DNA from: Mariprofundaceae bacterium
GTDB taxonomy: Bacteria > Pseudomonadota > Zetaproteobacteria > Mariprofundales > Mariprofundaceae
Direction: 5' to 3'
Length of the DNA stretch: 51,471 nucleotides
NCBI GenBank assembly: GCA_015488125.1
Contig: WFOJ01000096.1
Coordinates: 1 to 51,471, forward strand
Shown: one piece after another, positions 8,250-27,154 of the stretch
How positions within the stretch are numbered: the stretch's first letter is position 1
How the letters are laid out: every line of letters begins with the position of its first letter
Notes under the pieces: model-generated
The model's database searches: none
The model's input: only the letters and a program-made list of their open reading frames with translations
Told to the model about the DNA's origin: nothing
Position numbers and translations under genes: made by a program

Positions 8250-9119
8250 TTACAAAAGATCCTGAACGCCATCTTCAAAATGAACAACAGGATCCACAAG
8301 CAAAGACTTCATCTTTTTGATATCACCGATCAGGTTTCCCGATTCTGCAGATGGGTTAACTTCAAAAGTCGGTGTGGTATTCAGCTTTTCCCCAATAATC
8401 TCACATAACTCTCGTAGTGATAATGCATCAGGCCCTGCCACATTAAGGCGGTGACAACCTTTAAGCTTCAGAGCATGGGAAATAGCTCTGACCGCATCAG
8501 AAACATGAACAGGGTTGATATGCAACCCGTCGTTACCCTGAAGACGTACCGCTTTTCCATCCCTGATACTGTCAACCAGTCTGGGAATCAGCATGCTTCT
8601 TTTTTGTCCCTTGCCATAGACAAAAAAGAACCGAAGGAGGACGATATTCATGTAAGGCGCATAATTCTCTGCAAGCATTTCCGAGCAAAGCTTGCTCGAC
8701 AAATAGAAGCCAATGTTTCCACTGGCTGGAATGGTAATGCTTTCTTCCACGCTGTTTTCCGGAAATCCATACACGCCACCGCTGGATGCATAAATAAAGC
8801 TTTTTACCCCTGTTCTTCTGGCAAAGTCCAGAGCCTTGAGGACCTGAAAGGTATTTACCGAGAAAATATTGATTGCCTTATCGGGAAAATCACGAAAATA
8901 ATCCGACTGCGCCAGATACACGATTGCATCGGCTCGTTTTGGCAAGCTTCCGTCATCAAAGTCTTGTTCCAGGTCAATGCAGTGCCATGAGATGTCAGTT
9001 TTGTTGATCGCATGTTTTTTTCTTGAGACGGCGTGAATATTCCATGTGTCAGCCAGTTCTTTTACCAAATGCCGACCAATCAGTCCGCTAGCCCCTGTGA
9101 TGATCACCGTCTTACCCAT
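8250..9119 (-). CDS. NAD-dependent epimerase/dehydratase (extended SDR)
   Basis: MGKTVIITGASGLIGRHL Rossmann motif, YASSGGVYG and YLSSK (YxxxK). I chose the ATG at 9119 (M16 of the track ORF), which leaves an 8-nt overlap with the wzx stop. Confidence 0.85.
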   Translation of the reverse strand: MGKTVIITGASGLIGRHLVKELADTWNIHAVSRKKHAINKTDISWHCIDLEQDFDDGSLPKRADAIVYLAQSDYFRDFPDKAINIFSVNTFQVLKALDFARRTGVKSFIYASSGGVYGFPENSVEESITIPASGNIGFYLSSKLCSEMLAENYAPYMNIVLLRFFFVYGKGQKRSMLIPRLVDSIRDGKAVRLQGNDGLHINPVHVSDAVRAISHALKLKGCHRLNVAGPDALSLRELCEIIGEKLNTTPTFEVNPSAESGNLIGDIKKMKSLLVDPVVHFEDGVQDLL

Positions 9120-10539
9120 GCGCTGCTCCTTTATGAAATACCAATAGCCAGACTGTGATGACATACAATGCGCACAACAACAGTTTCAGGCCAACAACAT
9201 ACCAAGAAAGCTGATGCGACAACAACGCCAGCGATAACGACAAAAAACCAACGCACAATACAGATAAACCAATCAAATGAAACCACTGAATGGGCAGCGG
9301 GTGAAGTTTTTGCGTGTAATAAAGATAGGCTGAAGTCATGATTATGTAGGACAGTAAAGTAGCCCAGGCTGCGCCTGCAGCACCGAATGAAGGAATCAGT
9401 AACAGATTCAACAAGAAGTTACACCCCGCCGTCATCCATGCCAGACGTGCAAGAATATGCGTTTTTTTTTCCAGAGAAATGCCCAGTGCTGTCACCTGGG
9501 TTGTTGCCTGAAACACCAGGCCAATACTCAGGATTGCCAAAGGCAAGGCACTGTGCAGATACGCTTCAGGCATAATAACAACCACCAGTTCACCTGAAAA
9601 CAGCGCCAAACTTCCGCCAACAAGACCCATGGCTGCCAGCAAAAGCATGAAAATGCGAACATATTTTTCCCGGTAGGAATCAGGAAAATCCGTTTTTAGC
9701 TTGATCGCATACGGACTCCATGCCTGGCCAAACGCTGTGGAGAAAAACATGACAATAGCGGCAAGCCGAAAAGCCACGGAATACATACCCACTTCCGCTA
9801 CCGAACTCATGGAGGCAAGCATCCAGCGATCCATGGAAGCAAACAACCAGTAGGCCATACTGGCGAAGATGAATGGATAACCAAACTTTACCAGCTCTTT
9901 GATCCACCCGAAACTGATATTGCTCACTAAATCCTTCCTGATCAGCCATAAGCCGAGCGGCAGGGCAAGGCAAACAGCCAGCGCCTGCACCTCCATCATG
10001 CCATCAACCCCCCAGTTCAACTGCAAAACAACCAACACAGCCAGAGCCAGCCCCAGTGTTCGGGAGAGAAGAGAAAGCGAAAAAAACTTCCATGGTGCAA
10101 AATGCAGCCTTGTCACATCAAGGCAATAGGTCAGGTATTGGGTAGCCGCCATCAACACAAGCCCCGCAACAACGGCAGCCCAACTCATGGGTAGATGATG
10201 GGCCTCAATATACTTTTCAGCCAAAGGCAGCATGGCCAAACCGAGCAGCATCGCAAGGCACCCAAAAACAAATAGCGCAGCAAAACCGGAGCTGACCACC
10301 ACCGATCGCTGATCAACAGGCGTATCGGCATCCCAGTAAAAACGCTGCAAGGCATTATTGAGCCCACAGTTCATGAACATGGCAAGCAACGCGGTGGAAG
10401 TAAGCAGCAATTCCATCGCCCCGAAAGCATCAGGTGACAGTGCGGTCGCGATGATCGGGAAGGCAACAAAGGCAAGCAGTTTAGATATGGCATCGGCACC
10501 GCCATAGACAACAGAGTCTTTTAACAGGTTGTATTTCAC
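9112..10539 (-). CDS. wzx: MOP-superfamily oligosaccharide flippase (Wzx-like)
   Basis: 475 aa, hydrophobic throughout with about 12 predicted TM stretches. The N-terminus MKYNLLKDSVVYGGADAISKLLAFVAFPII is typical of polysaccharide biosynthesis/Wzx proteins. Confidence 0.8.
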   Translation of the reverse strand: MKYNLLKDSVVYGGADAISKLLAFVAFPIIATALSPDAFGAMELLLTSTALLAMFMNCGLNNALQRFYWDADTPVDQRSVVVSSGFAALFVFGCLAMLLGLAMLPLAEKYIEAHHLPMSWAAVVAGLVLMAATQYLTYCLDVTRLHFAPWKFFSLSLLSRTLGLALAVLVVLQLNWGVDGMMEVQALAVCLALPLGLWLIRKDLVSNISFGWIKELVKFGYPFIFASMAYWLFASMDRWMLASMSSVAEVGMYSVAFRLAAIVMFFSTAFGQAWSPYAIKLKTDFPDSYREKYVRIFMLLLAAMGLVGGSLALFSGELVVVIMPEAYLHSALPLAILSIGLVFQATTQVTALGISLEKKTHILARLAWMTAGCNFLLNLLLIPSFGAAGAAWATLLSYIIMTSAYLYYTQKLHPLPIQWFHLIGLSVLCVGFLSLSLALLSHQLSWYVVGLKLLLCALYVITVWLLVFHKGAAHG

Positions 10540-13016: not shown

Positions 13017-13803
13017 GTATCAGCGGAGTCACCCATGCATTCAGCCCTGTATCAGGTAACCCATTGGGAAAGTACCTTCGGTAATAATGATTTGTCAGAA
13101 ATTCCGATTCTGCTAAACGAATATGATCACGCCAAGCTCCTGCCAAAACCTGCTCCATTGTGCTGCTGTCGTATACCCATTGAAATGGATGAAACAACAA
13201 ATGAATCCTCTCAGGTGAATTTATCGCCTTATCAAGCCACTCCTCAATCGTGAAACGGTGGTTGGAATCAGAAGCATAAGCAAGTCCGTCAGCCACAAGC
13301 GCATAGGGGTTGATCAATCCAGCAATTGGTCGCGATACCAATGAAGCATGTTTCGCCCCCAGAACACTCGGATTGTGCCAACTCATCACAGGTTGCACCG
13401 GAACATCCAGCATTGAAGCAAGCAATTGCATATCATGCTGTACCATGGCATCAACAATTTCAGCCAACTCTTCTGCCGGAGAATCGGCAACGGCCTTTGG
13501 AAGGGAGAAATGCAACCCGATGGTATGCCCCAGCTCAATGATACGATGAATATTGTCGATATTATCCTGCTCCAACAAGTTGTACAAAACATTCCTGATC
13601 TGTAAGCAAAAGCATGCTTTCACGCCCAGTGCGTGATTTGCCTCTGCGACCCGTACAGCCGCCAGCAAATTATAATCAATGTCATGTCGTAACAATACGG
13701 CCTTAGGCACTTCTTCCGGTATGACCTCACCTAACGGATAAAAGGCGTAACCATTCTTCTGAAATGCTGAAAGCACATCTGAATAACTAACAAGAGAAAA
13801 CAT
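12994..13803 (-). CDS. polysaccharide deacetylase-like / hypothetical protein
   Basis: 269 aa. The LLRHDIDY and GHTIGLHF motifs resemble the divergent CE4-like fold. 1-nt overlap with the upstream methyltransferase. Confidence 0.5.
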   Translation of the reverse strand: MFSLVSYSDVLSAFQKNGYAFYPLGEVIPEEVPKAVLLRHDIDYNLLAAVRVAEANHALGVKACFCLQIRNVLYNLLEQDNIDNIHRIIELGHTIGLHFSLPKAVADSPAEELAEIVDAMVQHDMQLLASMLDVPVQPVMSWHNPSVLGAKHASLVSRPIAGLINPYALVADGLAYASDSNHRFTIEEWLDKAINSPERIHLLFHPFQWVYDSSTMEQVLAGAWRDHIRLAESEFLTNHYYRRYFPNGLPDTGLNAWVTPLIHAGNSCD

Positions 13804-14717
13804 TAAACCGCTTTCCGCAGCAAACTGATATAGATTCGTTCAATTCCCGCAGCTTGGCTGGATACCTTTTTGAGTAAACTGATTTTTTCATCCGACAACT
13901 CGCCTCTTAGCCGCATGCCATGCAATAACAAAGCTGGCTCAGCCGGTACTGTTATGCATTCTAGTACCTCAAAGCCAACAGCTTCCGCATCACGTTGCAT
14001 GCGTTTCTTGTCGTACAAATGAACTTCCACGGTGTGTTCGCTCTGACCACGAACAGTATCAACAAACTTTTTCTCACAAAGAATGCGCCCAACCTGCCCC
14101 CAATCGCTATTCAGCAACGCATGCACAAAATAGGCCTGGCTGGAGACATTGCTTACCATAGCCATTCCTCCAGGCTTTAGGCATCGCCATGCAGCACGAT
14201 ATGCGTCGAGAGGATCGGAGAGTGTATAAGCGACCTCGGAAAGAATCACTGCATCGGCAAAATCTATCCAAGGGAAAGTTTTATTGGCGGAAGAGCAAAT
14301 CAATGTTACCCGCTTTTTTTCATCCCCGCTAAGAGCTGCCCACAACCTCTTAAGATCAGTCGGGTTAAAATCAATAGCAACAACCCTCGACTCAGGTATC
14401 AAAATCAGCGCCTCCTTGCTCAAACGACCGTCACCACAACCAAGATCAACAATACAGGAAGGCTTGGGGATGACATCTGCAACTTTTCCAAGAGCTTCCC
14501 GGTAAAAAGGCATGTCATAATATCCCGCCTGCAATAAATTCGATGAACGTTCTCTTTGCCTGCATCCATCCGCCGAATTGTAGGCGTTTGCCTCTTCAGT
14601 ATCTCCACATTGTTCGGCATAAAGTATACTATCGGTATATTTCCAACCGAGAGGAAGATATTTTAAATTTAGCGTATCCAAATTCATGTGTATCGCATCC
14701 ATGGAAGATTCTTTCAA
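13803..14717 (-). CDS. class I SAM-dependent methyltransferase
   Basis: 304 aa. Motif I is IVDLGCGDGRLS, and the post-I acidic residue is in VVAIDFN. Confidence 0.8.
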   Translation of the reverse strand: MKESSMDAIHMNLDTLNLKYLPLGWKYTDSILYAEQCGDTEEANAYNSADGCRQRERSSNLLQAGYYDMPFYREALGKVADVIPKPSCIVDLGCGDGRLSKEALILIPESRVVAIDFNPTDLKRLWAALSGDEKKRVTLICSSANKTFPWIDFADAVILSEVAYTLSDPLDAYRAAWRCLKPGGMAMVSNVSSQAYFVHALLNSDWGQVGRILCEKKFVDTVRGQSEHTVEVHLYDKKRMQRDAEAVGFEVLECITVPAEPALLLHGMRLRGELSDEKISLLKKVSSQAAGIERIYISLLRKAV

Positions 14718-14832: not shown

Positions 14833-15576
14833 TCAAGGACATTGAATTTCTCCGATTTTACCGAATTCCATACCTCTATCTTTTCCCTGTTGAATCAAAC
14901 GAAGCAGAAAATTACGTGTGCCTGTAACTGCGTCCGAATTTCGCTGTTTCAACATTTGAACGGGATTATTAAAAAATTCGCGACAGATCTCATATCGTTT
15001 CAAAGTCTCAGTATTGAGAAAAACGTGAACCGGATGAAAATTAAAAATCTTCAAACCATGCGCATCGAGAAACCGCTCAACACTCCAATCTTTTTCAGTC
15101 CCATTTGAAAAACAAAAAGCATGCACATCATCTTCCCAAACAAAAGGAGTTCGAATTAGTCCGTTCCAAGATCGGAATGGTTTAACTTCAATTCCACTAT
15201 TTTTCGGTATTAGTAAATTAACTTCATGGGTCATTCCAATCTCAACAAAGTGGTCTAGCAAGCGAGTATTTTGCGTCAAAGAATGGGATCTAACACTTAC
15301 AGCCTCAGGAACCATCTCTTTTAGATGGCAGGTAATTTCCCCCATGCTCTTTTTTACAGTATCACCACCAAACAAAAGGTTGTTAAAATTTGGATGAATT
15401 CCCAGCTCAATGGCATCGTCTTTTCTCATGAGATCGAGCAATGGTGTATCATGAGTGACGAAAAACGTGGCTGATACATTATATTCATTAAGAATGGAAA
15501 GGGTGTCTGCCAGAACCTCATTACCAGCCCAATCAATATCAAAAGTAAGAAAAACTCTTTTAGCCCAATTACGCAT
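14833..15576 (-). CDS. polysaccharide deacetylase-family protein (WbmS-like)
   Basis: 247 aa. FLTFDIDW..ATFFVTHD..GIHPNF..RSHSL is a pattern of CE4-related deacetylases found in O-antigen loci. Confidence 0.65.
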   Translation of the reverse strand: MRNWAKRVFLTFDIDWAGNEVLADTLSILNEYNVSATFFVTHDTPLLDLMRKDDAIELGIHPNFNNLLFGGDTVKKSMGEITCHLKEMVPEAVSVRSHSLTQNTRLLDHFVEIGMTHEVNLLIPKNSGIEVKPFRSWNGLIRTPFVWEDDVHAFCFSNGTEKDWSVERFLDAHGLKIFNFHPVHVFLNTETLKRYEICREFFNNPVQMLKQRNSDAVTGTRNFLLRLIQQGKDRGMEFGKIGEIQCP

Positions 15577-16351
15577 CTTTTTTTACCACATAAACACCGG
15601 CATAGCTGCATTCAGAAAAGTTTAGACTAAATGCGTTTTTAATTTGTAGCTCAGCAAATACACGATTAATGTGACTATCATGCTGTACGTTTCCATTTGT
15701 CAGCAATGGATGAATTACACGTGACCCGTAGATATACTCACCGAACCCAACGAATTCAATAACTTCCCCTCTACTCTGAAAAAAGCCTTCAAGATCAAGG
15801 TTATCAAAAAAAAGATTGTATTCAACCACATTCATCACTGATAGGCCATTACGCTGGCGATGAATATTTATGCCATCCCATCCATGCTTATACCCTTCAC
15901 TAAACAATAACAGCCCCCCAGGTTTAAGCACATAAAAAAGATTTTCCAATGCCCGATATTGCATTTTGGCATCAGGAAGATTTATCAGACAGCGAATGCT
16001 AATGACCCGGTCGAAGGAATTCGGTTCAAATACTTTATCCAATTCTAGCACATCACCTTGGATAAAATTTCCATTGCATATGCTTCTTTGTAATGCACGC
16101 TCAATGAGCGATTGAGAATAATCTATGCCTGTAATTTCATTAACTCGTTGAGAGAAAAAATCTGTTGATGATCCATCACCACAGCCAACATCAAGAACCT
16201 GATCATTGCTATCTAGGTAATTGCCTATGAAGTACTCGTTAAGCTGTTGCATATAGGGATCTCGTGCTGTTGATTTCAACCCATCCTTATCAACTTCTTT
16301 TAACCCGGCTTCTTGCCAGAATTTCTTTATTTTTTCATATAGTTCCATCAA
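15569..16351 (-). CDS. class I SAM-dependent methyltransferase
   Basis: 260 aa. Motif I is VLDVGCGDGSST, followed later by LKPGGLLLF. Confidence 0.85.
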   Translation of the reverse strand: MMELYEKIKKFWQEAGLKEVDKDGLKSTARDPYMQQLNEYFIGNYLDSNDQVLDVGCGDGSSTDFFSQRVNEITGIDYSQSLIERALQRSICNGNFIQGDVLELDKVFEPNSFDRVISIRCLINLPDAKMQYRALENLFYVLKPGGLLLFSEGYKHGWDGINIHRQRNGLSVMNVVEYNLFFDNLDLEGFFQSRGEVIEFVGFGEYIYGSRVIHPLLTNGNVQHDSHINRVFAELQIKNAFSLNFSECSYAGVYVVKKDA

Positions 16352-16564: not shown

Positions 16565-18448
16565 TCACAACTCATCATGAATAAACAACTCACACCACTC
16601 TTCGAAGTTGAGCAGTGACCAAATAAACAGTCTGCGGTTTTCCTTGCCTTGAATATGATCATTAATCAGGTCTTGAATAGTTTTACGATCCATATAATCA
16701 TAAATTCTGGCATGTGGTGAACACAGTTTTCTGCGCACGTATTCAATGCTTTCGCCACGAAACCAGGAGGCATCCGGAGCAGAAAAACCACGCTTTTCAG
16801 CTTGGGTGATTTCATCCGGAATATAATGACGCATCACTTCCCGAAGGAGAAGCTTTCCATCTTTCACTTTTTGGAAGTATTTCTTCGTTTTGTTACCAGG
16901 TTCATTTTCATTGAGGCGAACAACATCTGTCAAATTTCTCAACTTCAGTCGGACAGGAACCTGCATGGCAAAATCGACCAGATCATTGTCAAGAAATGGT
17001 ACACGAGACTCCAAGCCATGTGCCATACTCAACTTATCTTCGACAACGAGTAGGCCATGCAAAAATGTTTTCGCCTCAAAATAGAGAGAATGATTCACAT
17101 AATCCTCAGGACGTGTCAGAGAAGACGCATGTCTGTAAAAAACATTTTTGAAAATATCACGAGTCCAAACATGATTCACATCCGACCAGACAGGGCTGAA
17201 CACCTTATGAATTAGCTTGTTTTGAATCAACCGCTGCCAGAACTTGTAATATTTATCAATATAATGTTCAAAATCATCGTTGACGACGGCACGATAATAG
17301 CGCCAGGGATAGCCGCCAAACAGCTCATCTCCGCCAGCGCCGGACAAAACAACCTTGACGAATTTTGAGGCTAATTTGGCAGCGTAAAAATTAGGATAAC
17401 TTTGGCCAACGCGCGGCTCTTCAAGGTGCCAGGCCAGCGCAGGTAGAGCGCGCTCCATGTCGCCAGCCTTGAGTACCATTTCATAATGTTCCGTCTTGAA
17501 CAGATAGGACATGTATTCGGCCTGTGTTCGCTCATCATAGCCCAGTTCGATGCCCGATGCTGAATTGAGGTCGAACCCGCAGGTAAATGTTTTCATGTAG
17601 GGGTACTGCTGTGCGGCCAGGGCTGTAATGGAGCCAGAGTCAATGCCCCCGCTGAGGTAGGACCCCAGTTCAACGTCACTGACCAGCTGACGATTGACCG
17701 CCTGCCTGAACAGACGATCCAGTTCTTCCCTGTATTCGCTGTCACTGGCGGGGGATTCTGGCTCAACAAAATTGAAGTCCCAGTATTGTGTAAGTTTGAT
17801 CGTTCCGGAATCAGCGCTGACAATGCCGTAATGCCCTGCGGGAAATATGTGAACGCCCTTGAGCAGGGTTTTGTCGGTGAAAATATTCTGGAAAGTGAAA
17901 TATTCCAGTAAACCTTCAAGGTCAACCTGCTTTTCAATGCCAGGATATGCAGTCATGGCTTTTTGCTCAGAGCCAAACAAAAACGCCGAACCCTGAAACA
18001 TATAGTACAGCGGCTTGATGCCATAACGATCACGCGCCAGGAACAGCGCTTTGCTGCGACGATCCCATACCGCGAAGGCAAACATGCCGTTAAGCCGGTG
18101 CAGACAGTCAGCGCCCCATTCAACCCAGGCATTCAGCAGGACTTCTGAATCGGTATCTGAAACAAAGCGATGCCCCAGCCGCTCCAGTTCCGCACGAATT
18201 TCCATGAAATTGTAGATTTCGCCGTTATAGCTGAGTACATAGCGCTGATCAGCACTTACCATCGGTTGATGCCCGGCCGGGCTCAGGTCGATGATTGCCA
18301 GACGACGATGGCCTAATCCGACACAGCCATCCACCCAATGCCCTTCCCCGTCCGGCCCCCGGTGGGCTATGGCATCGGTCATACGCTTTAGAAGAACTGG
18401 CGAGGCCGGTTCACCATTCAGGTGCAGCATGCCTGCAATACCACACAT
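16565..18448 (-). CDS. AsnB-family glutamine-dependent amidotransferase (second copy)
   Basis: 627 aa. N-terminal MCGIAGML and the PP-loop YLSGGIDSGSITA. Confidence 0.9.
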   Translation of the reverse strand: MCGIAGMLHLNGEPASPVLLKRMTDAIAHRGPDGEGHWVDGCVGLGHRRLAIIDLSPAGHQPMVSADQRYVLSYNGEIYNFMEIRAELERLGHRFVSDTDSEVLLNAWVEWGADCLHRLNGMFAFAVWDRRSKALFLARDRYGIKPLYYMFQGSAFLFGSEQKAMTAYPGIEKQVDLEGLLEYFTFQNIFTDKTLLKGVHIFPAGHYGIVSADSGTIKLTQYWDFNFVEPESPASDSEYREELDRLFRQAVNRQLVSDVELGSYLSGGIDSGSITALAAQQYPYMKTFTCGFDLNSASGIELGYDERTQAEYMSYLFKTEHYEMVLKAGDMERALPALAWHLEEPRVGQSYPNFYAAKLASKFVKVVLSGAGGDELFGGYPWRYYRAVVNDDFEHYIDKYYKFWQRLIQNKLIHKVFSPVWSDVNHVWTRDIFKNVFYRHASSLTRPEDYVNHSLYFEAKTFLHGLLVVEDKLSMAHGLESRVPFLDNDLVDFAMQVPVRLKLRNLTDVVRLNENEPGNKTKKYFQKVKDGKLLLREVMRHYIPDEITQAEKRGFSAPDASWFRGESIEYVRRKLCSPHARIYDYMDRKTIQDLINDHIQGKENRRLFIWSLLNFEEWCELFIHDEL

Positions 18449-19597
18449 TTAGCTTGCGATTCCTTTGATGCACTCAACCACATAAGCGTAATCATCCGCT
18501 GTCATCCTGTTATGCAGTGGAATCGCCATGGTATGGGCATCGCATGCTTTAGCTGCCGGAAAATCATCTGCCCGGATACCAAAGCGATCCCGGTATAGCC
18601 CCAGCATATGCACAGCATGCGTTCCCGGCCGGGTGGCAATGCCTCGCTGTTGCAAGGCATCCATAATATCGTTGCGTGGCATTGGCGCCCTTTCAGGTTC
18701 CACCCATGTGGTAAACGCCTGCCAGGCATGGCGGCCGCCCGCCGGTTCATCGGGCAGACGCAGCCACGCCACATCAGCCAGCTGATCACGATACCAGGCT
18801 GCCCAGTTGGCGCGTTCAGAAATGAAGGACTCCAGTTTGGCAAGCTGAACCAGCCCAACAGCGCCTTGTAAATCCGTCATGCGATAATTAAAGCCGAGCA
18901 GATTGAATGCTGGCAACAGGTAAGGGTGCGCCCCCTTGTGCCGCTGTTCCTCGGAGATACTGGCGCCGTGATTGCGCATCATGTTCATCTGTTCAAAAAG
19001 CGCATCGTCGTTGGTGGTGATCATGCCACCTTCACCCGTGGTAATGGATTTGCGCGGATGAAAGGAAAACACCCCTGCATCGCCCAGGCCACCAGCCTTT
19101 TTCCCTTGGTAGCTCGCACCCGCTGCACAGGCCGCATCCTCGATGATTTTGACATGCGGTGGAATGACTTTGCGAATGGCATCCATATCGGCGCACAAGC
19201 CGAATAAATGCACCGGAATAATGGCTTTGGTTTTTTCCGTTATCTTGCCGACCACATCGTCAGCATCCATGTTAAACGTCATTGGATCAACATCCGCAAA
19301 CACAGGGGTCGCGCCACAATAAAGCACAACATTCGCCGTTGCCACCCAGGTAAAGGCTGGTACGATCACTTCATCGCCCTCACCAACACCCATGGCTGCC
19401 AGCGCCAGATGCAGGCCGGTTGTGCAGCTTGTCACGGCCAGCGCATGTTTCACATCATGCGCTTTGGCGAACTGCGCCTCGAACTCAGCTACCTTTGGCC
19501 CTTGCGTCAGCCAACCACTCATAATGGGTTCACGCACTGCCTGCCATTCCTCTTCTCCGGTGGCAGGTAGCGAAATGTGTATCTGTCGTTTATGCAT
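18449..19597 (-). CDS. DegT/DnrJ/EryC1/StrS-family PLP-dependent sugar aminotransferase (second aminotransferase of the locus)
   Basis: Motifs GDEVIVPAFTWVATAN and SFHPRKSITTGEGGMITTND (PLP lysine). I chose the ATG at 19597 (MHKRQIHISLP..), which overlaps the upstream stop. The longer track ORF start at 19663 would run into the previous gene. Confidence 0.9.
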   Translation of the reverse strand: MHKRQIHISLPATGEEEWQAVREPIMSGWLTQGPKVAEFEAQFAKAHDVKHALAVTSCTTGLHLALAAMGVGEGDEVIVPAFTWVATANVVLYCGATPVFADVDPMTFNMDADDVVGKITEKTKAIIPVHLFGLCADMDAIRKVIPPHVKIIEDAACAAGASYQGKKAGGLGDAGVFSFHPRKSITTGEGGMITTNDDALFEQMNMMRNHGASISEEQRHKGAHPYLLPAFNLLGFNYRMTDLQGAVGLVQLAKLESFISERANWAAWYRDQLADVAWLRLPDEPAGGRHAWQAFTTWVEPERAPMPRNDIMDALQQRGIATRPGTHAVHMLGLYRDRFGIRADDFPAAKACDAHTMAIPLHNRMTADDYAYVVECIKGIAS

Positions 19598-20609
19598 CCG
19601 CAAGTCCGACGGCTGCCCGGCGAGCGGCCACCTCAGCCTTATGTGCCTTGCGCCAATCAACAAGCTTTCGCAGGCCTTCCATCAAATCATACTTCGCTTC
19701 AAAGCCGATTTCTTCCCTGGCTTTCCTGGGGCAGCCGATCCGGTTGCGTACCAGCGTTGCCTGACTGCGTGGCGCATACTGAATTTCTTTATCACAGCCC
19801 GTGATTTCCAGCAGCATTTCTGCTAACTCCTTTAAGGATGTTCGCTTGCCTGTCCCTACATTGTAAAAGCTATCGGTTGCATCCGACTTCATAGCACACA
19901 CATTGGCACGACCACAATCCTCGACAGCGACAAAGTCGAAGGCCTCAGAACCATCACCGAGGATCGTCGGCGCTTCTCCGCGATCAATAGCATCAAGCAT
20001 TTTCATGATCACAGCAATATAGGCACCGTTATAATCCTGACGCGGGCCATACACATTCATATAGCGCAGGCCAACAAAATCAAAATGCTTATCCGTTCCC
20101 TTATAGCGATGATGCAACGAGCGGCACATGTGTTCGCCGGCGATCTTGGTGGCACCATAGAAATTCAGATTATTGTACGGGTGATCCTCCGTCATCGGCT
20201 CTTCGACAGCATCGCCGTAAACAGATGCCGAGGATGAGTAAACCAGGCGTTTAACACCGTTATTCAGCATGGCTTCCAATACATTAAACGTTCCACCGAT
20301 ATTGACCTCGAAGGCAGACCGTGGAAAATCATGACAGTGCAACAGCCATAATGCGGCAAAATGGAACACGCCATCGATACCCTTCATCGCTTCATTGAGT
20401 AAGTCCCGATGCAGTAATTCTCCGCCAAGTGGAAAAATATTTACACGCGGATCCTTAAGCGCTTCAGCCAGGTTTTCCCGACTGCCGCGGGAAAAATTAT
20501 CGTAGATGCGAATCTCTTCGACATCCTCCTTGACCAACTCATCCACACAGTGCGAACCGATCAGCCCACCGCCGCCAATTACCAACAGACGTTTACCTTT
20601 TAAATCCAT
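19590..20609 (-). CDS. NAD-dependent epimerase/dehydratase (extended SDR; WbpK/WbmF-H-like)
   Basis: MDLKGKRLLVIGGGGLIGSHCV, YSSSASVYG and YGATK. The ATG at 20609 is preceded by AAGGAG 6 nt upstream. Confidence 0.85.
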   Translation of the reverse strand: MDLKGKRLLVIGGGGLIGSHCVDELVKEDVEEIRIYDNFSRGSRENLAEALKDPRVNIFPLGGELLHRDLLNEAMKGIDGVFHFAALWLLHCHDFPRSAFEVNIGGTFNVLEAMLNNGVKRLVYSSSASVYGDAVEEPMTEDHPYNNLNFYGATKIAGEHMCRSLHHRYKGTDKHFDFVGLRYMNVYGPRQDYNGAYIAVIMKMLDAIDRGEAPTILGDGSEAFDFVAVEDCGRANVCAMKSDATDSFYNVGTGKRTSLKELAEMLLEITGCDKEIQYAPRSQATLVRNRIGCPRKAREEIGFEAKYDLMEGLRKLVDWRKAHKAEVAARRAAVGLADA

Positions 20610-20610
20610 T

Positions 20611-21813
20611 CTAAACTCCTTTTTGATCCACAATATATTTTGCAAAACTCATCGAACTGGTAAACGCCGGTGAGATCGCATTCAGCACATGCGTGCTGTT
20701 AACGCCATTTTCTACAACAAAATCCATCACCAATTCATGTTTTTTTATGTCCAGCAGTTGTGCCCGAATACCCACCTTGTCACTGGCAAGCAGGTCTTCA
20801 TCCCTTAACTCCGGAGTTAGATGGCGCGCCGCTTCGGCAAATTTTGAGCGAAAAAAGCGCAATGCTTCCGCATGTGAAAAGTCTCTAAAGCCCTGTTTAT
20901 TCAAGATGTACTGCTGCCCAAGTCGAAACAGTATCGAAACACTTTCTGCCAGGTTTATACCTTCCAGCCCTTTATAGTGCTCGCGGCCCAGTGCCGGAAC
21001 AGCAGTCGGCCCCAAGTACACATGACCATCAATTTTTTTCGTATAGTGAACACCCAGAAATGGTACATTCAAATCAGGTACAGGATATATCATACGGTTG
21101 CAGATAACTTTCGATGTTGGCGATAGCCGGTAATAAATCCCCTTGAAAGGCAACAATGTGTAGCGCTCACCTACACCGAGCTGCTTACCCACCTGATCTG
21201 CATACTGACCGGAAGAATTAAACAACCATCCATAGCCATATGTGCCGGTTCGTGTTCTCAGCCATGCGTTGCTGGCATCCACCTCCATGATTTCAGCATT
21301 AAACTGAAACGTCACCCCATTGGCTTGCAGGATCCGCGCCATATGGCAAACGATGGATTTTGGTTCGACCACTGCGGTATCTGGCGCATATAGTGCCTGA
21401 CCCGTAGCAGTTCTGGCAGACGGCTCCAGTTCATGAAGCTGCGCCGCATTGAGCAACTCCACTCGCGCCCCGTTGGCCTGGGCACGCCTAAATAACAAAT
21501 CCAGTTGCTGATCATCATCTGAGCGAACAGGCACAATTACCTTGCCCAGTCGCGCAATAGGAAGACGGTTGCGATCACAATACTCAGCCATCAACCTGGC
21601 GCCATCGGCGCACATTCTGGCCTTTAACGATTCTTCGGGATAGTAGATGCCAGAGTGTAGCACACCACTATTGCGACCACTGCCATGCCGACCCACTTCC
21701 GACTCTTTTTCAAGTATAAGAACAGAGCAATCAGGCTCTCTAGATAACAATTCGCGAGCTACTGTCAAGCCGACAATGCCAGCGCCGATGATGATATAAT
21801 CGTACGGTTTCAC
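20611..21813 (-). CDS. lhgO: FAD-dependent L-2-hydroxyglutarate oxidase/dehydrogenase family protein
   Basis: 400 aa with a GTG start. The motifs YDYIIIGAGIVGL, ILEKESEVGRHGSGRNSGVLHSGIYY, PFKGIYYRL, MIYPVPDLNVPFLGVHYTKKIDGHV and HVLNAISPAFTSS track the E. coli LhgO (YgaF) motifs as I recall them. Confidence 0.75.
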   Translation of the reverse strand: MKPYDYIIIGAGIVGLTVARELLSREPDCSVLILEKESEVGRHGSGRNSGVLHSGIYYPEESLKARMCADGARLMAEYCDRNRLPIARLGKVIVPVRSDDDQQLDLLFRRAQANGARVELLNAAQLHELEPSARTATGQALYAPDTAVVEPKSIVCHMARILQANGVTFQFNAEIMEVDASNAWLRTRTGTYGYGWLFNSSGQYADQVGKQLGVGERYTLLPFKGIYYRLSPTSKVICNRMIYPVPDLNVPFLGVHYTKKIDGHVYLGPTAVPALGREHYKGLEGINLAESVSILFRLGQQYILNKQGFRDFSHAEALRFFRSKFAEAARHLTPELRDEDLLASDKVGIRAQLLDIKKHELVMDFVVENGVNSTHVLNAISPAFTSSMSFAKYIVDQKGV

Positions 21814-21814
21814 T

Positions 21815-23350
21815 TCAGGAAGCCACCGCCTCTTTCAGCATGCAGACGGTGATTTCCTGATTCTCATGAGTCAAATACGGATGCATCGGCAAGCTCATCA
21901 CGCGTTCAGCGGCATATTCGCTGCGTTCAAAATGCTCTGGATGTGCCAGAGCTGGTTGGTGATTCAGTGGAATCGGATAATGCACAGCGGTGGGAACCCC
22001 GGCTTCTTTCAAGTGTGCCTGCACGGCATCGCGGTTTTCCACCTGCACCGTATATTGCGCATAAACCGACGTATTGTATGGCTCGATGTACGGCGTTGTT
22101 ACGATATCGCCCAGCAATTCCGTATAGCGTGCGCCGATTCGCGCTCGCGCTTGCACTTCTTCATCAAACACATCCAGCTTGGCCAGCAGAATCGCTGCCT
22201 GCAAGGTGTCCAGCCGACCATTCACGCCAATGCGTGGATGGTGATAACGCCGATCCTGACCATGCACGCGAATCTCGCGCATGGCTTTGGCCAGGTCATC
22301 ATCATTGGTAAAGCAGGCCCCGCCATCGCCATAACAGCCCAGCGGCTTGGAGGGAAAAAAGCTGGTGCAGCCGATCGTGGTCAAACCGCACGATTTTCTA
22401 CCCTTGTAGGTAGCGCCGAAGCTCTGGCAGCCATCTTCAATCACCGGCAGGCCATGTTTTTCCGCAATCGCGTTAATCGCGTCATAGTCTGCGCATTGGC
22501 CATAGAGCGATACCGGCATGATCGCCTTGGTTTTTTCTGTAACCGCCGCTTCCAACAGCGAAGGATCCAGGTTGTAGGTTTTGGGATCAATATCGACAAA
22601 CACCGGCCTGGCACCAAGCAGGGCGATCGTTTCCGCTGTGGCAATAAAGCTAAATGGCGTGGTAATCACCTCATCACCTGACCCAACACCCAGCGCCATC
22701 AGGGCAATCAGCAGCGCATCGGTGCCGCTGGCTACGCCAATGGCATGTTGTACGTTCACATACTCTGCCAGCCGTTCTTCCAGTGCTTCGACCTCCCGGC
22801 CCATGATATAACGTCCATGATGCAGCACTGCATGCATGTTTTTTTCCAGTTGCGGACGAAGCAGATCCTGTTGTGTTTTCAGGTCGATGAAATCAGTGCC
22901 GCTTTCAGATGATGGTTGATCCAGCCAGTCTAATGCCTCTGAGGGGGTCACTGCATCCACATCACCCAATGTATCAAAGGTTCGGTTGCTTGTAACAATC
23001 ACCGCTTCCCCATGCAGGGCACAGGCAGCCAGTGCAATCTGGGCATCTTCATAATCACGCGCTTTTGCATATGCGTTGCGTTGTTCATAACCAAAATTAC
23101 TCAATACATTGACCCGGGATAACAGATGATCCATCAACTGCTGCACCATGGCACGCGCTTCCGAACCACTAGCTCCGGCATGTATCAGTTGGCGGGTAGC
23201 GAGATAGTCCAGGATAGGCAAAGAAGATGCCGACACCCAGCCGGAAGCCCGCCTGCCAACCGCATCAAACAGGAGTTGGAGCGCTTCAACATTCGCTCTG
23301 GCAAACCACAAATCGAGAACCGCACTCACATCGAAAACAAGGTGTTTCAT
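21815..23350 (-). CDS. wbpE: fusion protein: N-terminal PIN-like (VapC-type) domain plus full-length WbpE/WlbC-type UDP-3-oxo-sugar aminotransferase
   Basis: Residues 1-~150 ([56 protein letters not shown]) look PIN-like. After a linker DWLDQPSSESGTD with no in-frame stop or start codon comes FIDLKTQQDLL..GVASGTDAL..SFFPSKPLGCYGDGGACFTND (DegT fold with PLP lysine). The ATG at 23350 overlaps the upstream ORF stop as ATGA. Confidence 0.85.
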   Translation of the reverse strand: MKHLVFDVSAVLDLWFARANVEALQLLFDAVGRRASGWVSASSLPILDYLATRQLIHAGASGSEARAMVQQLMDHLLSRVNVLSNFGYEQRNAYAKARDYEDAQIALAACALHGEAVIVTSNRTFDTLGDVDAVTPSEALDWLDQPSSESGTDFIDLKTQQDLLRPQLEKNMHAVLHHGRYIMGREVEALEERLAEYVNVQHAIGVASGTDALLIALMALGVGSGDEVITTPFSFIATAETIALLGARPVFVDIDPKTYNLDPSLLEAAVTEKTKAIMPVSLYGQCADYDAINAIAEKHGLPVIEDGCQSFGATYKGRKSCGLTTIGCTSFFPSKPLGCYGDGGACFTNDDDLAKAMREIRVHGQDRRYHHPRIGVNGRLDTLQAAILLAKLDVFDEEVQARARIGARYTELLGDIVTTPYIEPYNTSVYAQYTVQVENRDAVQAHLKEAGVPTAVHYPIPLNHQPALAHPEHFERSEYAAERVMSLPMHPYLTHENQEITVCMLKEAVAS

Positions 23351-23601
23351 GAATGTTTTTCCGCCAGATGCTGATGCCATGCCGCCTTATCATCGGCCAC
23401 CGTTTGCGGCGTATGGCCCTGACGGTATTTTCCAAGAATTGCATTCAGCTCGTCAGCAATCGTGTTATCCACCGCTTCAGTTGACGAAATTTCAAGCGCC
23501 TCATCCGGAAGCTCAATGACGACCTGAAACGACTCGCGCCGAAGCTTTAGCTGCCTCGGCAACCGCAGTGTGCCATGATCATAAAAAGCTGTTACCCGCA
23601 T
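23347..23601 (-). CDS. small antitoxin-like protein (DUF104/AF2212-type, VapB-like)
   Basis: 84 aa. The N-terminus [34 protein letters not shown] matches the pattern of DUF104 antitoxins (M..A.Y.nG.l.P...l.L.e...v.i.i). It has an ATGA overlap with the PIN ORF, and its start overlaps the wbpD stop by 10 nt. Confidence 0.6.
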
Positions 23602-24167
23602 ATCCGCTGCACCTCACCACCCTTCAATCGATACCGCTCTCCGGTATGTACACACGTCGTATCAGCCTCGCCATGCAAAGGCAAGTCAAGCCGTTCACCA
23701 TAAGCGCTCATCCAGCCGATTTGTTTGGCTGGCACACCCACCATCAACGCGTAATCAGGCACATCCCGATTCACTACAGCGCCTGCGCCGATGAATGCGT
23801 AACAACCAATCGTCGTACCACACACGATTGTGCAGTTCGCGCCGAGCGTCGCACCTTGCTTCACCAGCGTATCGCGATATTCATGCTTGCGGGAAACCGC
23901 AGAACGCGGGTTATAGACATTGGTAAACACCATGCTCGGGCCACAAAATACATCATCCTCAAGTATCACATTGTCATAAACAGAGACATTGTTTTGAATT
24001 TTCACGTTATTGCCGATGACCACCCGGTTGCCGACAAAAACATTCTGCCCCAACGAACAGCCCTGACCGATACGTGCGCCACCGCATACATGCACCCAAT
24101 GCCAGATCCGCGTTCCCTCACCGACCAAAGCGCCATCATCAACAACCGCTGTTTCATGCACCTGCAT
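23592..24167 (-). CDS. wbpD: left-handed beta-helix N-acetyltransferase, UDP-2-acetamido-3-amino-2,3-dideoxy-glucuronate 3-N-acetyltransferase type
   Basis: 191 aa. The sequence [80 protein letters not shown] closely follows WbpD/WlbB as I recall it. Confidence 0.85.
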
Positions 24168-24170
24168 GAC

Positions 24171-25223
24171 TCAATACTCCAGCGGCAGGGCAACAGTTCG
24201 GCCATCACGGGCAGAGAGGTAAGCAGCAATCAGTACTTCAAGCGACTTCAGGCCCTCGCGCCCATCGGTTTCCGGTTCACATATGCCACGCAGTGTATCC
24301 ACAACGTTCTTGTAATACAGCGGATGACCAAAGCCATATACAGAGGTGGTTTCATAACTGGCTTCCCGTACCTGTTCATCATAGTCCCGGCTGTCAGCAA
24401 ACTCCCAGTGCTGAATTTCATTAACAGCCACCCCTCCGACGCGCACCGTGCCTTTCTCGCCAAGGATCGTCATCGAACCTTCCAGGTTTTTCGGCCACGT
24501 CAGCATGCTGACGGCCATGGAACCCAAGGTGCCAGAGCGCCAGCGAATATTTAACACGCCCGTATCTTCCACCTCAATATTTCTGCCCAGCGTAGCGGTC
24601 ATGGCCTGCACGCGATCAACCGGACCGATCAGCCAATCGAGCAGATCAACATAATGACTGGCCTGGTTCATAAAGGCACCGCCATCCAGTTCCCACGTTC
24701 CCCGCCATTTGGCAGAGTCATAGTAAGCCTGTGGACGCGTCCAGAAGACGTTCAAATGCACCATGTAAATACGTCCAAAACGTTGTTCGCAAACAGCGCG
24801 CTTAAGCAATTGCAGGGTCGAATTGCGCCGATTTTGCTTGACGACAAACAATCGAACATTGGCCTGGTCACAGGCGCGCACCATGCGCAGGCCATCCGTC
24901 CAGCGGGTAGCCATGGGCTTTTCCGTCATCACATGCACACCAAAACGGGCTGCCATGACAGCTTGTTCCGGGTGCATACCGCTGGGTGTACACAACGCCA
25001 CAAGATCGGGATGTTCCCGATCAAGCATGGTTTCAAGATGCTGATAGCTGGGCACGCCATAACGTTCGCCATGTGTACGGGCAACATCCGGGTTCGCATC
25101 GCATACTGCGATAAGTTGCAAATCCTCGCCATGGCAGGCAATCGCCTTAAAATGATTTTGCGCAATACGACCGCAGCCGACAACGGCAATGCGAATGGGA
25201 CGATCATTGATCACAGGAAACAT
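24171..25223 (-). CDS. wbpB: Gfo/Idh/MocA oxidoreductase, UDP-GlcNAcA 3-dehydrogenase type
   Basis: 350 aa. Motifs RIAVVGCGRIAQNHF (Rossmann), MTEKPMATRW and FVVKQNRRN. It sits between wbpA-like and wbpD-like genes. Confidence 0.85.
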   Translation of the reverse strand: MFPVINDRPIRIAVVGCGRIAQNHFKAIACHGEDLQLIAVCDANPDVARTHGERYGVPSYQHLETMLDREHPDLVALCTPSGMHPEQAVMAARFGVHVMTEKPMATRWTDGLRMVRACDQANVRLFVVKQNRRNSTLQLLKRAVCEQRFGRIYMVHLNVFWTRPQAYYDSAKWRGTWELDGGAFMNQASHYVDLLDWLIGPVDRVQAMTATLGRNIEVEDTGVLNIRWRSGTLGSMAVSMLTWPKNLEGSMTILGEKGTVRVGGVAVNEIQHWEFADSRDYDEQVREASYETTSVYGFGHPLYYKNVVDTLRGICEPETDGREGLKSLEVLIAAYLSARDGRTVALPLEY

Positions 25224-25226
25224 GGG

Positions 25227-26519
25227 CTACGCCTTAACAAGATTGGGCGCATCTTGACGATACACACCTCTGGAATCAACCACCAGCGATGCATGCTGAA
25301 GAATCATTGCATAATCAAAATCCTGATGGTTGGTGGCAATCACCACGGCATCATAGCTACGGATCACTTCATCACTCAGTGCCGTGCTGGCAAGATCAAA
25401 ATGATGCTCGCGCATTTTGGGAAAAACCGGCACATAAGGATCGCTGTAGGCAACCACAGCGCCTTTGGCACGAAGCAACTCCATAATTTCAACCGATGGC
25501 GATTCACGCATATCATCCACATTGGGCTTGTAAGCAATACCCAATACCAGAATATGGCTGCCATTGAGTGCTTTTTGTTGCCTGTTCAGACCATCCACCA
25601 ACTTGCCGACCACCCACTGGGGCATGGCCGTGTTGACTTCCCCGGCAAGCTCGATAAAGCGCGTGTTAAGGCCGTATTCCCGCGCTTTCCAGGTCAGATA
25701 AAACGGGTCAATCGGGATGCAATGCCCGCCAAGTCCGGGGCCGGGATAATAGGGCGTAAAGCCAAAAGGCTTGGTGGCAGCAGCCTGAATCACTTCGTGA
25801 ATATCCACGCCCATGCTGTCGGCGACGATTTTCATTTCGTTAACCAGGCCGATGTTGACAGCGCGGTGGATGTTTTCCAGCAGCTTGGTCATCTCCGCTG
25901 CACGTGTTGAACTTACAGGCACAACCTGATCAATCGCAGGACTGTAAAGCGCAATACCCACTTCAAGACAATCCGGCGTGTGACCCCCGCATACCTTGGG
26001 AATGGTGCGAGTGACAAAATCGGGATTACCCGGATCTTCCCGTTCAGGAGAATAGACAAGAAAAACATCCTTGCCAACTTTCAAGCCGGAAGATTCGATA
26101 CGCGGCAACAATTCTTCTTCAGTGGTGCCAGGATAAGTAGTGCTTTCCAGCGATAGTACCTGGCCGCTCCGCAAATAGGGCACCAGCGCATCGGTGGTAT
26201 TCGTGACGAATGCAAGATCAGGTTCCCGATATTTATTCAGCGGTGTGGGTACGCAAATAATCAATGCATCTGCTTTTGTTGCCTGCGAAAAATCCGTGGT
26301 CGCCTCAAAGCCACATTGCGTTACCGCATGTGTTATTGCCGACGATGAGATGTGCCGGATATAGCTTTTTCCCGCATTGAGCGCATGTACCTTGGACGGG
26401 TCGATATCAATCCCCAGCACCTTAAAGCCGACCTCGGCATAGCGCAACACCAGCGGCAGGCCCACATAACCCAAGCCAATAATGCCGATCACGGCTGTTT
26501 TTGTTTGAAATTTGTCCAT
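25227..26519 (-). CDS. wbpA: UDP-N-acetyl-D-glucosamine (or mannosamine) 6-dehydrogenase
   Basis: [23 protein letters not shown] Rossmann start and the [13 protein letters not shown] catalytic Cys motif. I chose the ATG at 26519. The 40-aa N-terminal extension in the track ORF has no homolog-like character. Confidence 0.9.
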
Positions 26520-27154
26520 TAACTGATCTTTGATCACACTTATATTCCTTGTAGTGATTCGATGTGTTGTTGTAATAACATCAGTTTCTCTCCTACCGTT
26601 AAACAAAGCAACGGTCGTCACGAAACAACCCAGCGACAACCATACGTAGCTTGCATACTGGCAGAGTCAATTCAAAAAGACAAAACGCCATCGTCACGCA
26701 CTTGTTGGTAACGAAAAAAATTGACCTCTATCTGTGCTTGGGTATTTTTCTGTGCGGACTCGTCAACCAATTGCCGCCTCATGCATTGAAAGGAACGCAT
26801 CCACCACACACCTTGTTTACAGCAAGGAAGAAAAAGCATTTTTTATGCTTACTGCGAAAATCCCACGTTTAAAACTATGTCATCCGTACTCACTGATGGC
26901 TATTGTTGTGCCATGCGCTGATCATCTCCGCACGGATGGCCGAATACTGCCGCAAATATTTCGCTGCGGCTACAATTGCCTGTTTTGAGTTTATATCAAC
27001 ACGATGCTACCATTTTTTCAGACCAAACGGGGCATACTCCGGTCACGCGACATTCAATCTGCTTGTTACCCAATATCTCCGATCATCAATAACCTGTCTT
27101 TACAGGCGTCAACTGAAACAACGATAGCGTGTATTTTTCACACAGCTTGTGTAA

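Follow-up and report, generated by a model that had tools for sequence, protein, structure and literature searches.

We have analyzed a 51,471-nucleotide stretch of DNA from a Mariprofundaceae bacterium (contig WFOJ01000096.1, positions 1 to 51,471 of the forward strand; this whole stretch is referred to below as the window) that carries, within a glycan operon, a gene for a probable flavin adenine dinucleotide (FAD)-dependent L-2-hydroxyglutarate dehydrogenase/oxidase of the LhgO/L2HGDH family. The gene occupies positions 20611–21813 of the minus strand, an interval filled exactly by one open reading frame (ORF) with a GTG start codon and a product of 400 amino acids, which we call LhgO. A preliminary description of this DNA had recognized the family and had pointed to three motifs in the translation, and all of this was borne out: RNSGVLHSGIYY is found at residues 47–58, PFKGIYYRL starting at residue 222, and YPVPDLNVPFLGVHYTKKIDG starting at residue 243, and the protein scores 342.2 bits against the NCBIfam model NF008726 ("L-2-hydroxyglutarate oxidase"), for which the curated cutoff is 299. 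The match extends over residues 4–396 of 400 and over the entire model (positions 1–389 of 389). LhgO also matches Pfam DAO (PF01266; 2.9e-54, residues 5–396) and has a GxGxxG motif for FAD near its N terminus (IIGAGIVG, residues 7–14); the runner-up family match is to type 2 glycerol-3-phosphate oxidase (1.4e-35). Because one identical protein and relatives with 74–88% identity exist in public data, we take the gene to be real.

The solved structure most similar to LhgO is that of Drosophila L-2-hydroxyglutarate dehydrogenase (dmL2HGDH; PDB 8W75, 1e-54), to which LhgO is approximately 34% identical; its identity to Escherichia coli LhgD is likewise 34%. Six residues of dmL2HGDH bind 2-oxoglutarate (2-OG), namely Ser88, His92, Tyr289, Leu299, His302, and Arg393; mutation of these residues abolishes or impairs activity, and L2HGDH has zero activity with D-2-hydroxyglutarate (D-2-HG) (PMC10726252). 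An alignment to 8W75 identifies S49, H53, Y243, L253, H256, and R350 as their respective counterparts in the window protein, and all six are invariant across 78 aligned sequences, a set made up of proteins from the related loci described below, the window protein, E. coli LhgD, dmL2HGDH, and one protein similar to Bp3253 of Bordetella pertussis. We therefore accept, on sequence grounds, the assignment of LhgO to the LhgO/L2HGDH family, and because the NF008726 score is above the cutoff and the six substrate-site residues are intact, L-2-hydroxyglutarate (L-2-HG) is its probable substrate.

Both neighbors of the gene lie extremely close. On the upstream side, the stop codon of a gene for a WbpE-like fusion protein (TGA, 21817–21815) is followed by a single A and then by the GTG of LhgO at 21813; on the downstream side, the LhgO stop codon (TAG, 20613–20611) is followed by a single A and then by the ATG (20609) of a gene for a short-chain dehydrogenase/reductase (SDR). 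Inspection base by base thus confirmed the two 1-nt gaps, and the embedding in an operon, that had been described previously, and when genes were called independently on the scaffold from the source metagenome, the same 400-aa and 339-aa genes were obtained with the same boundaries. In the order of minus-strand transcription, the operon encodes a WbpA-like protein, a WbpB/WlbA-like protein, a WbpD-like protein, a PIN-like and WbpE-like fusion, LhgO, the SDR, a second DegT aminotransferase, and an AsnB-like protein, after which come genes for methyltransferases, a WbmS-like deacetylase, glycosyltransferases, and a flippase.

The SDR (19590–20609, minus strand; 339 amino acids, Pfam Epimerase 1.9e-47) is a GalE-like member of the extended family. 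Its ATG is preceded by AAAGGAG, a good Shine–Dalgarno sequence, and the protein begins MDLKGKR. It has the extended-SDR fold with the Ser...YxxxK signature, represented by the motifs SSSASVYG and YGATK (S125–S129 and Y151–K155 are invariant), and the solved structures closest to it are of 4-epimerases (6DNT, 4ZRM, WbpP, and WbgU). SSSASVYG is a motif of the GalE/epimerase type, and an acidic residue (Asp or Glu) is typical of 4,6-dehydratases and decarboxylases; the window SDR lacks that residue. The SDR is 70–76% identical across phyla, and an LhgO homolog is encoded directly upstream of it in 15 loci from genomes, in 10 from metagenomes, and in two cultured strains.

Recurrent neighbors of LhgO

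Our comparative work covered 162 loci. In an LhgO-seeded scan, one genome per GTDB species was searched with an alignment of relatives as the query, the best 80 loci were kept, and the content of the neighborhoods was established by tblastn with the window proteins and by clustering of ORFs. An extended SDR was the immediate same-strand neighbor of LhgO in 27 of 80 cases (79 related loci plus the window), as compared with 8% for other ORFs there. Every conserved context that emerged, of which there were two, had, adjoining the L-2-HG-oxidizing flavoenzyme, an SDR of the kind whose target is C4 of a nucleotide sugar, and DegT genes were present in both.

The first context, A, comprises approximately 15 of these loci in addition to the window and has the order (WbpA, WbpB, WbpD, WbpE)–LhgO–SDR–(second DegT)–AsnB. 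It is found in Cyanobacteria, Nitrospirota, Planctomycetes, and Alpha-, Gamma-, and Zetaproteobacteria, and its WbpB is either of the Chromobacterium violaceum type or of the Pseudomonas aeruginosa type (ORF cluster c47). The AsnB-like protein, which is approximately 70% identical in the cassettes of other phyla, completes the SDR cassette as its third conserved member. Not all such loci have the upstream genes: WbpA, WbpB, WbpD, and WbpE are all missing within 21 kb in locus L002, and the LhgO–SDR order without WbpB, WbpD, and WbpE recurs in locus L147. The two cultured strains with the LhgO–SDR cassette are Methylomarinum vadi and Legionella taurinensis, in which the spacing is a 1-nt gap or a 4-nt overlap. 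In M. vadi, three consecutive nucleotidyltransferase/HepT-like toxin–antitoxin pairs and a transposase lie directly upstream of WlbA (L162, 3499–6918), which is consistent with a mobile or variable region.

In the second context, B, the gene products are, in order, a radical SAM protein, a GHMP kinase, an SDR, a split transketolase, a DegT aminotransferase, a nucleotidyltransferase, a SIS isomerase, an SDR of ORF cluster c4, LhgO, and a HAD phosphatase. The genes flanking LhgO are like HddA, HddC, GmhA, and GmhB, as in GDP-heptose clusters, and there is no WbpB. A representative of the c4 SDRs matches Cj1427 of Campylobacter jejuni (PDB 6VO6) at 1e-113. In 11 genome loci, genes for Cj1427 orthologs (53–56% identity) end 2–44 nt before the start of an LhgO gene on the same strand, the LhgO homologs in question being 43–48% identical to the window protein; a twelfth ortholog (58%) is located 3.6 kb upstream of LhgO in L064. 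Cj1427 is an SDR that acts as a ping-pong GDP-heptose C4-dehydrogenase, its tightly bound NADH being oxidized by 2-OG, "which is subsequently reduced to L-2-hydroxyglutarate" (PMC10680097). The context-B cluster, which runs from the radical SAM gene to the GmhB-like gene and takes in approximately 6 kb upstream of LhgO, is seen in L014, L022, L023, L024, L027, L028, L031, L033, L034, L039, and L069; it is widespread, with Methylobacter, Thioglobus, Alphaproteobacteria, and others among its hosts, and is apparently uncharacterized. Its content suggests a pathway in which GDP-heptose is modified, possibly by branching or by a 4-amino group.

A second scan, of metagenomes, was seeded with the SDR and hence was unbiased toward LhgO. 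Among 57 loci with enough upstream sequence, an L2HGDH-like gene was directly upstream of the SDR gene in 12 and elsewhere in the cluster in 5. LhgO is, then, an accessory part of the cassette, present in about 30%. The scan also brought to light a second, non-orthologous family in the same position. In L094 (4884–5987) and L131 (4179–5285), a gene of the Bp3253/3DME type is found in place of LhgO, with the SDR directly downstream, and in L088 (approximately 850–1953), L111 (1–996), and L146 (3–980) a gene of this type stands at the start of clusters with a P. aeruginosa-type WbpB, adjoining a gene for an SDR that, as we read its sequence, resembles UDP-glucuronate 4-epimerase. Members of the family have approximately 368 residues and match 3DME at 4.5e-115; they are 25–27% identical to the window LhgO and score 203 bits against NF008726, which is under the cutoff. 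Bp3253 itself (B. pertussis, PDB 3DME) conserves the substrate residues of L2HGDH (PMC10726252).

Nor do the LhgO proteins of context A form a single lineage. In a neighbor-joining tree that carries no support values they are polyphyletic and interleaved with the LhgO proteins of GDP-heptose clusters that have Cj1427-family SDRs. For example, the cyanobacterial proteins of L015 and L030 are nearest to those of the context B-like loci L040 (58%) and L020 (50–52%), and are 43–50% identical to other context-A proteins; similarly, the Vibrio-type proteins of L055 and L037 are nearest to that of L038 and to those of context-B loci L014 and L069. Because of this interleaving, we view the tree as suggesting repeated recruitment or exchange of LhgO between two kinds of SDR partner, in which it would have interchangeable roles.

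Proposed re-oxidation of L-2-hydroxyglutarate and competing explanations

We propose, with a probability that we put at roughly 45%, that LhgO re-oxidizes L-2-HG produced by the GalE-like SDR encoded just downstream, which would act as a ping-pong C4-dehydrogenase. The proposal that the SDR is a 2-OG-using C4-dehydrogenase is made because the two contexts share a C4-acting SDR beside LhgO and because Cj1427 produces L-2-HG stoichiometrically. It is an argument by analogy: Cj1427 is a protein that the window SDR may work like, not a family of which it is a member. That the window SDR turns over 2-OG and L-2-HG we infer solely from the adjacency to L2HGDH-like genes; its being a net dehydrogenase at all, oxidation at C4, and the identity of the sugar, presumably a UDP-2,3-diacetamido-uronic acid, are similarly conjectural. 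In favor of a net dehydrogenase are the epimerase-type motifs of the SDR, its lack of the acidic residue, and the C4-type aminotransferase encoded beside it. A net oxidation would be needed because a uronic acid substrate could not be activated by 4,6-dehydration.

The sequence of reactions would be as follows. First, the SDR, keeping its cofactor bound, would oxidize the C4 hydroxyl of the sugar with enzyme-bound NAD+ to give a 4-keto sugar and enzyme-bound NADH, and second, it would transfer the hydride to 2-OG, restoring bound NAD+ and releasing L-2-HG. Third, the 4-keto sugar would be converted with glutamate to a 4-amino sugar and 2-OG by the second, translationally coupled aminotransferase. 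This protein (18449–19597, minus strand; 382 amino acids, ATG at 19597, Pfam DegT 1e-120), whose ORF overlaps the stop codon of the SDR by 8 nt, resembles C4 aminotransferases, the top solved structures being perosamine synthetase (1e-81) and ArnB (3e-72), both of which act at C4, and WbpE coming in at merely 2e-43. The net result up to this point would be conversion of the sugar hydroxyl and glutamate to a sugar amine and L-2-HG. Fourth, LhgO would oxidize L-2-HG back to 2-OG, passing the electrons to quinone or O2, thereby closing the loop and making the whole sequence irreversible. More tentatively still, since we hold it to be somewhat less probable than the proposal for the window itself, the strongly conserved GalE-like SDRs of this type would constitute a second widespread family of 2-OG-dependent, ping-pong sugar-nucleotide C4-dehydrogenases, and two families of L2HGDH would repeatedly have been recruited into glycan operons, here and beside Cj1427 orthologs alike, as dedicated regenerators of the hydride sink, such that electrons withdrawn from a sugar during its amination would pass by way of L-2-HG to the respiratory chain or O2.

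Several observations weigh against this proposal. In 40 of the 57 SDR-seeded loci there is no L2HGDH-like gene nearby, and LhgO is to this extent dispensable. The solved relatives closest to the window SDR are ordinary 4-epimerases, enzymes that need no external oxidant, and the SDR could be a plain epimerase. Orthology of the window SDR to Cj1427 was considered and rejected: the two give no blastp match at 1e-5, and 6VO6 is not among the PDB matches of the SDR at 1e-20. Further, some LhgO–SDR cassettes (L003, L004, L030, and L108) are missing the second aminotransferase, so that conversion of a 4-keto to a 4-amino sugar is not universal. Finally, the sets of loci surveyed were limited to the best 80 matches and are not phylogenetically independent, the ORFs were called by a simple longest-ORF heuristic, and the tree is without support values.

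The principal rival to re-oxidation of SDR-derived L-2-HG is general metabolite repair, which we consider unlikely and yet the most serious of the alternatives. On this account LhgO is a true L-2-HG oxidase with no dedicated partner: two glutamate-dependent aminotransferases together with NADH-releasing dehydrogenases would raise the local levels of 2-OG and NADH, enzymes such as malate or lactate dehydrogenase would promiscuously reduce 2-OG to L-2-HG, which would inhibit enzymes that use 2-OG or glutamate, and the cluster-borne LhgO would clear it, chiefly where a housekeeping L2HGDH is absent. The accessory nature of LhgO, found in about 30% of cassettes, fits with this idea, as do the DegT genes in both conserved contexts and the nature of the carriers, which are often autotrophs or methanotrophs (Mariprofundus-like bacteria, Methylomarinum, Methylomicrobium, Prochlorococcus, Synechococcus, and Nitrospirota). 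What repair leaves unexplained is the repeated placement of LhgO directly beside an SDR, so much more frequent than the background, and the fact that these SDRs include orthologs of the sole SDR known for stoichiometric production of L-2-HG.

Distinctly less probable is the explanation offered in the preliminary description, that LhgO re-oxidizes 2-hydroxyglutarate (2-HG) from the operon's own WbpB/WlbA 3-dehydrogenase, which would regenerate its bound NAD+ with 2-OG. It is a tempting assignment, since homologs of WbpA, WbpB, WbpD, and WbpE are encoded directly upstream in the operon and in most context-A loci, and since P. aeruginosa WbpB does have a ping-pong mechanism in which 2-OG oxidizes NADH (PMC10622841), with a block in removal of the resulting 2-HG lowering O-antigen (PMC8651671). 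The preliminary description had attributed the use of 2-OG to Bordetella WlbA as well; this is mistaken, for the WlbA enzymes of both B. pertussis and C. violaceum have sequential mechanisms (PMC10622841; Holden laboratory). Its proposal had been made to depend on the class of the local WbpB (24171–25223, minus strand), a WlbA/WbpB-type UDP-GlcNAcA 3-dehydrogenase, and what we find is a full-length match to C. violaceum WlbA (3Q2I, 3e-165) and to B. pertussis WlbA (3Q2K, 3e-154), as against just 5e-11 for Thermus thermophilus 3O9Z, taken here as representative of the P. aeruginosa/T. thermophilus class. By this comparison the local WbpB falls outside the 2-OG-dependent ping-pong subfamily and belongs to the sequential-mechanism class, which would operate without 2-OG. 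A 2011 abstract on the B. pertussis and C. violaceum enzymes reportedly states that they "do not require alpha-ketoglutarate."

Two further lines of evidence point in the same direction. One is stereochemical. A chiral assay showed that P. aeruginosa WbpB yields D-2-HG (Xiao et al. 2021, PMC8651671), the enantiomer that L2HGDH rejects, and in that organism it is a D-2-hydroxyglutarate dehydrogenase encoded at an unlinked site (D2HGDH, PA0317) that recycles the D-2-HG from WbpB and whose loss lowers O-antigen (PMC8651671). No D2HGDH/GlcD-like gene was detected in the 162 loci, not even in clusters with a P. aeruginosa-type WbpB, where one might have been expected; this negative carries little weight. 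The other is co-occurrence. True P. aeruginosa-type WbpB genes (c47) do occur in other loci, and by a hand count of the SDR-seeded loci an L2HGDH-like gene accompanies the C. violaceum type in approximately 6 of 12–15 cases and the P. aeruginosa type in 4 of 16; these rates are similar, and the hand tally gave no clear dependence of LhgO on WbpB class or on the second aminotransferase. Moreover, L2HGDH-like genes are also found in loci without WbpB (L002, L147, and all of the GDP-heptose clusters), always beside an SDR. A survey of neighborhoods, as had been suggested, thus upheld the conservation of the adjacency, which extends across phyla and is not unique to this genome, while showing it to be independent of the presence and class of WbpB. 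Enzyme class, enantiomer, and co-occurrence together lead us to reject WbpB as the likely source of 2-HG. From the earlier interpretation we retain its core, in that re-oxidation of 2-HG behind a sugar-nucleotide dehydrogenase with 2-OG as its hydride sink stays the best explanation, and discard WbpB as the partner.

It is about equally improbable that LhgO has some other substrate (a different 2-hydroxy-dicarboxylate or a hydroxy or amino group on a sugar), modifies the glycan directly, and is over-annotated as an L-2-HG oxidase. The NF008726 score exceeds the cutoff only modestly, identity to characterized enzymes is low, and DAO-family substrates are diverse, the second family match here being to a glycerol-3-phosphate oxidase; against this, the residues through which dmL2HGDH holds 2-OG, six in all and reaching the C2 oxygen as well as the two carboxylates, are conserved and invariant. 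Among them is the counterpart of Arg393, the residue that interacts with the C5 carboxylate and marks a free C5-dicarboxylate as the substrate. Least probable of all, LhgO might be a functionally unlinked passenger of a horizontally mobile cassette that is mosaic, widely transferred, and mostly without LhgO, a notion at odds with the tight spacing (1 nt or overlapping), with the recruitment of at least three LhgO lineages and of a second, non-orthologous family to the same slot, and with the same adjacency in an unrelated heptose pathway.

The glycan pathway and other genes of the window

The window cluster contains homologs of WbpA, WbpB, WbpE, and WbpD of the Wbp/Wlb pathway for UDP-ManNAc3NAcA. 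The WbpA-like nucleotide-sugar 6-dehydrogenase (25227–26639, minus strand) scores 427 bits against TIGR03026, for which the cutoff is 190, and the matches to its three UDPG_MGDP_dh domains begin at residue 51. The true start is probably internal to the listed ORF. The WbpD-like hexapeptide N-acetyltransferase (23592–24167, minus strand; Pfam Hexapep 2.9e-19) has orthologs (57–80% identity) that adjoin WbpB or WbpE in related loci. WbpE itself is represented by a 521-residue DegT aminotransferase (21815–23380, minus strand; Pfam DegT 4e-117, residues 179–509) with an N-terminal extension of approximately 170 residues (22856–23380, minus strand). This extension has a weak match to PIN_3 (7e-5, under the gathering score). 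The WbpE of L003 carries a comparable fused extension (40% identical), and it is unusual for a sugar aminotransferase to have a PIN-like domain.

A search of the whole window by tblastn with the 2-epimerase of L. taurinensis gave no match to a WbpI/WlbD-type UDP-sugar 2-epimerase. Because the window lacks such an enzyme, the product of the pathway is probably not manno-configured and hence not ManNAc3NAcA; the sugar probably derives from 2,3-diacetamido-uronic acid in the gluco or galacto configuration. In L001 (4994–6055) and L. taurinensis (L163, 8920–10017), a gene for the 2-epimerase is located directly upstream of LhgO, in the place taken by WbpE in the window.

Other genes in the operon, all on the minus strand, have a bearing on the finished glycan. 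There are two AsnB-like glutamine amidotransferases (4128–6074 and 16565–18448), of which the latter, the member of the SDR cassette, matches TIGR01536 at 457 bits (cutoff 267) as well as Pfam GATase_6/7 and Asn_synthase, and probably amidates a carboxylate or acts at a later step. Three class-I methyltransferases (15569–16351, 13803–14717, and 7350–8237) and a second SDR (8250–9164) are also encoded, and together with the AsnB-like proteins they suggest a glycan of amino-uronic acid that is heavily modified. A polysaccharide deacetylase (14833–15576) matches Pfam PF22537 at 1.9e-66; the name of this family, "WbmS-like," presumably refers to the wbm O-antigen locus of Bordetella and hints at a relationship of the glycan to the diacetamido-uronamide polymers of that genus.

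Elsewhere in the window, a plus-strand gene at 38188–42003 encodes a protein of 1271 residues with DUF3683, FAD_binding_4, FAD-oxidase_C, 4Fe-4S, CCG, and DUF3400 domains, in that order; the glycan operon, whose limit is at 26639, lies approximately 12 kb away on the opposite strand. The architecture of the protein is like that of YdiJ, and it is a candidate D-2-hydroxyacid dehydrogenase; its match to the model for the D-2-HG dehydrogenase YdiJ is very weak (50 bits, against a cutoff of 1350).

Relation to known systems

As an enzyme, LhgO belongs to a known family and is unremarkable within it: it shares the DAO fold family and the catalytic and substrate residues with E. coli LhgD/LhgO (YgaF), Pseudomonas putida LhgO, and the Drosophila and human L2HGDH enzymes. 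It is the setting that differs. E. coli lhgD belongs to glaH-lhgD-gabDTP, which serves the catabolism of glutarate and gamma-aminobutyrate, whereas the window gene lies in a glycan operon between WbpE and an SDR, with no glaH or gab genes near it in the window. Bp3253 (3DME) has the same substrate residues as LhgO, and its relatives occupy the LhgO position ahead of the SDR in L094 and L131, yet it is of a different subfamily. As for Cj1427, the substrate of that enzyme is GDP-heptose, whereas the window SDR is a distant, GalE-like relative. We know of no LhgO gene in the published C. jejuni capsule cluster.

The nearest parallel in its logic is the coupling of D2HGDH to WbpB (and to SerA) in P. 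aeruginosa, where 2-OG serves as a hydride sink and a flavoenzyme re-oxidizes the 2-HG (PMC8651671). That system works with the D-enantiomer and an unrelated enzyme of the FAD_binding_4 type encoded by an unlinked gene, whereas the window has an operon-encoded enzyme of an L-specific family and a WbpB that would not use 2-OG. Coupling of 2-HG and 2-OG to a sugar dehydrogenase is thus already known for D-2-HG (PMC8651671), and the earlier claim of novelty does not extend to recycling of 2-HG from WbpB; it does stand for a link between LhgO and glycan synthesis, of which we found no relevant description in the literature searched. (Bacteria are outside the scope of a 2026 preprint that deals with L2HGDH and coenzyme Q.) Recruitment, at the level of the operon, of L2HGDH-type genes beside SDR sugar dehydrogenases, Cj1427 orthologs among them, likewise appears to be undescribed in that literature, and this recruitment is the reason that we predict the conserved SDR of the cassette to be a new ping-pong dehydrogenase.

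The operon's WbpB, to which a role in generating 2-HG might readily have been assigned, is of a class that does not use 2-OG, and this corrects that assignment. Should our proposal be right, it would answer the question of the fate of the L-2-HG that Cj1427-type dehydrogenases form stoichiometrically, and it would extend the published coupling of D2HGDH to WbpB and SerA to the L-enantiomer and to an enzyme encoded in the operon itself. An L2HGDH gene beside an SDR gene would then be a genomic marker that distinguishes 2-OG-using net dehydrogenases from epimerases and would help in decoding the uncharacterized amino-sugar pathways of environmental bacteria.

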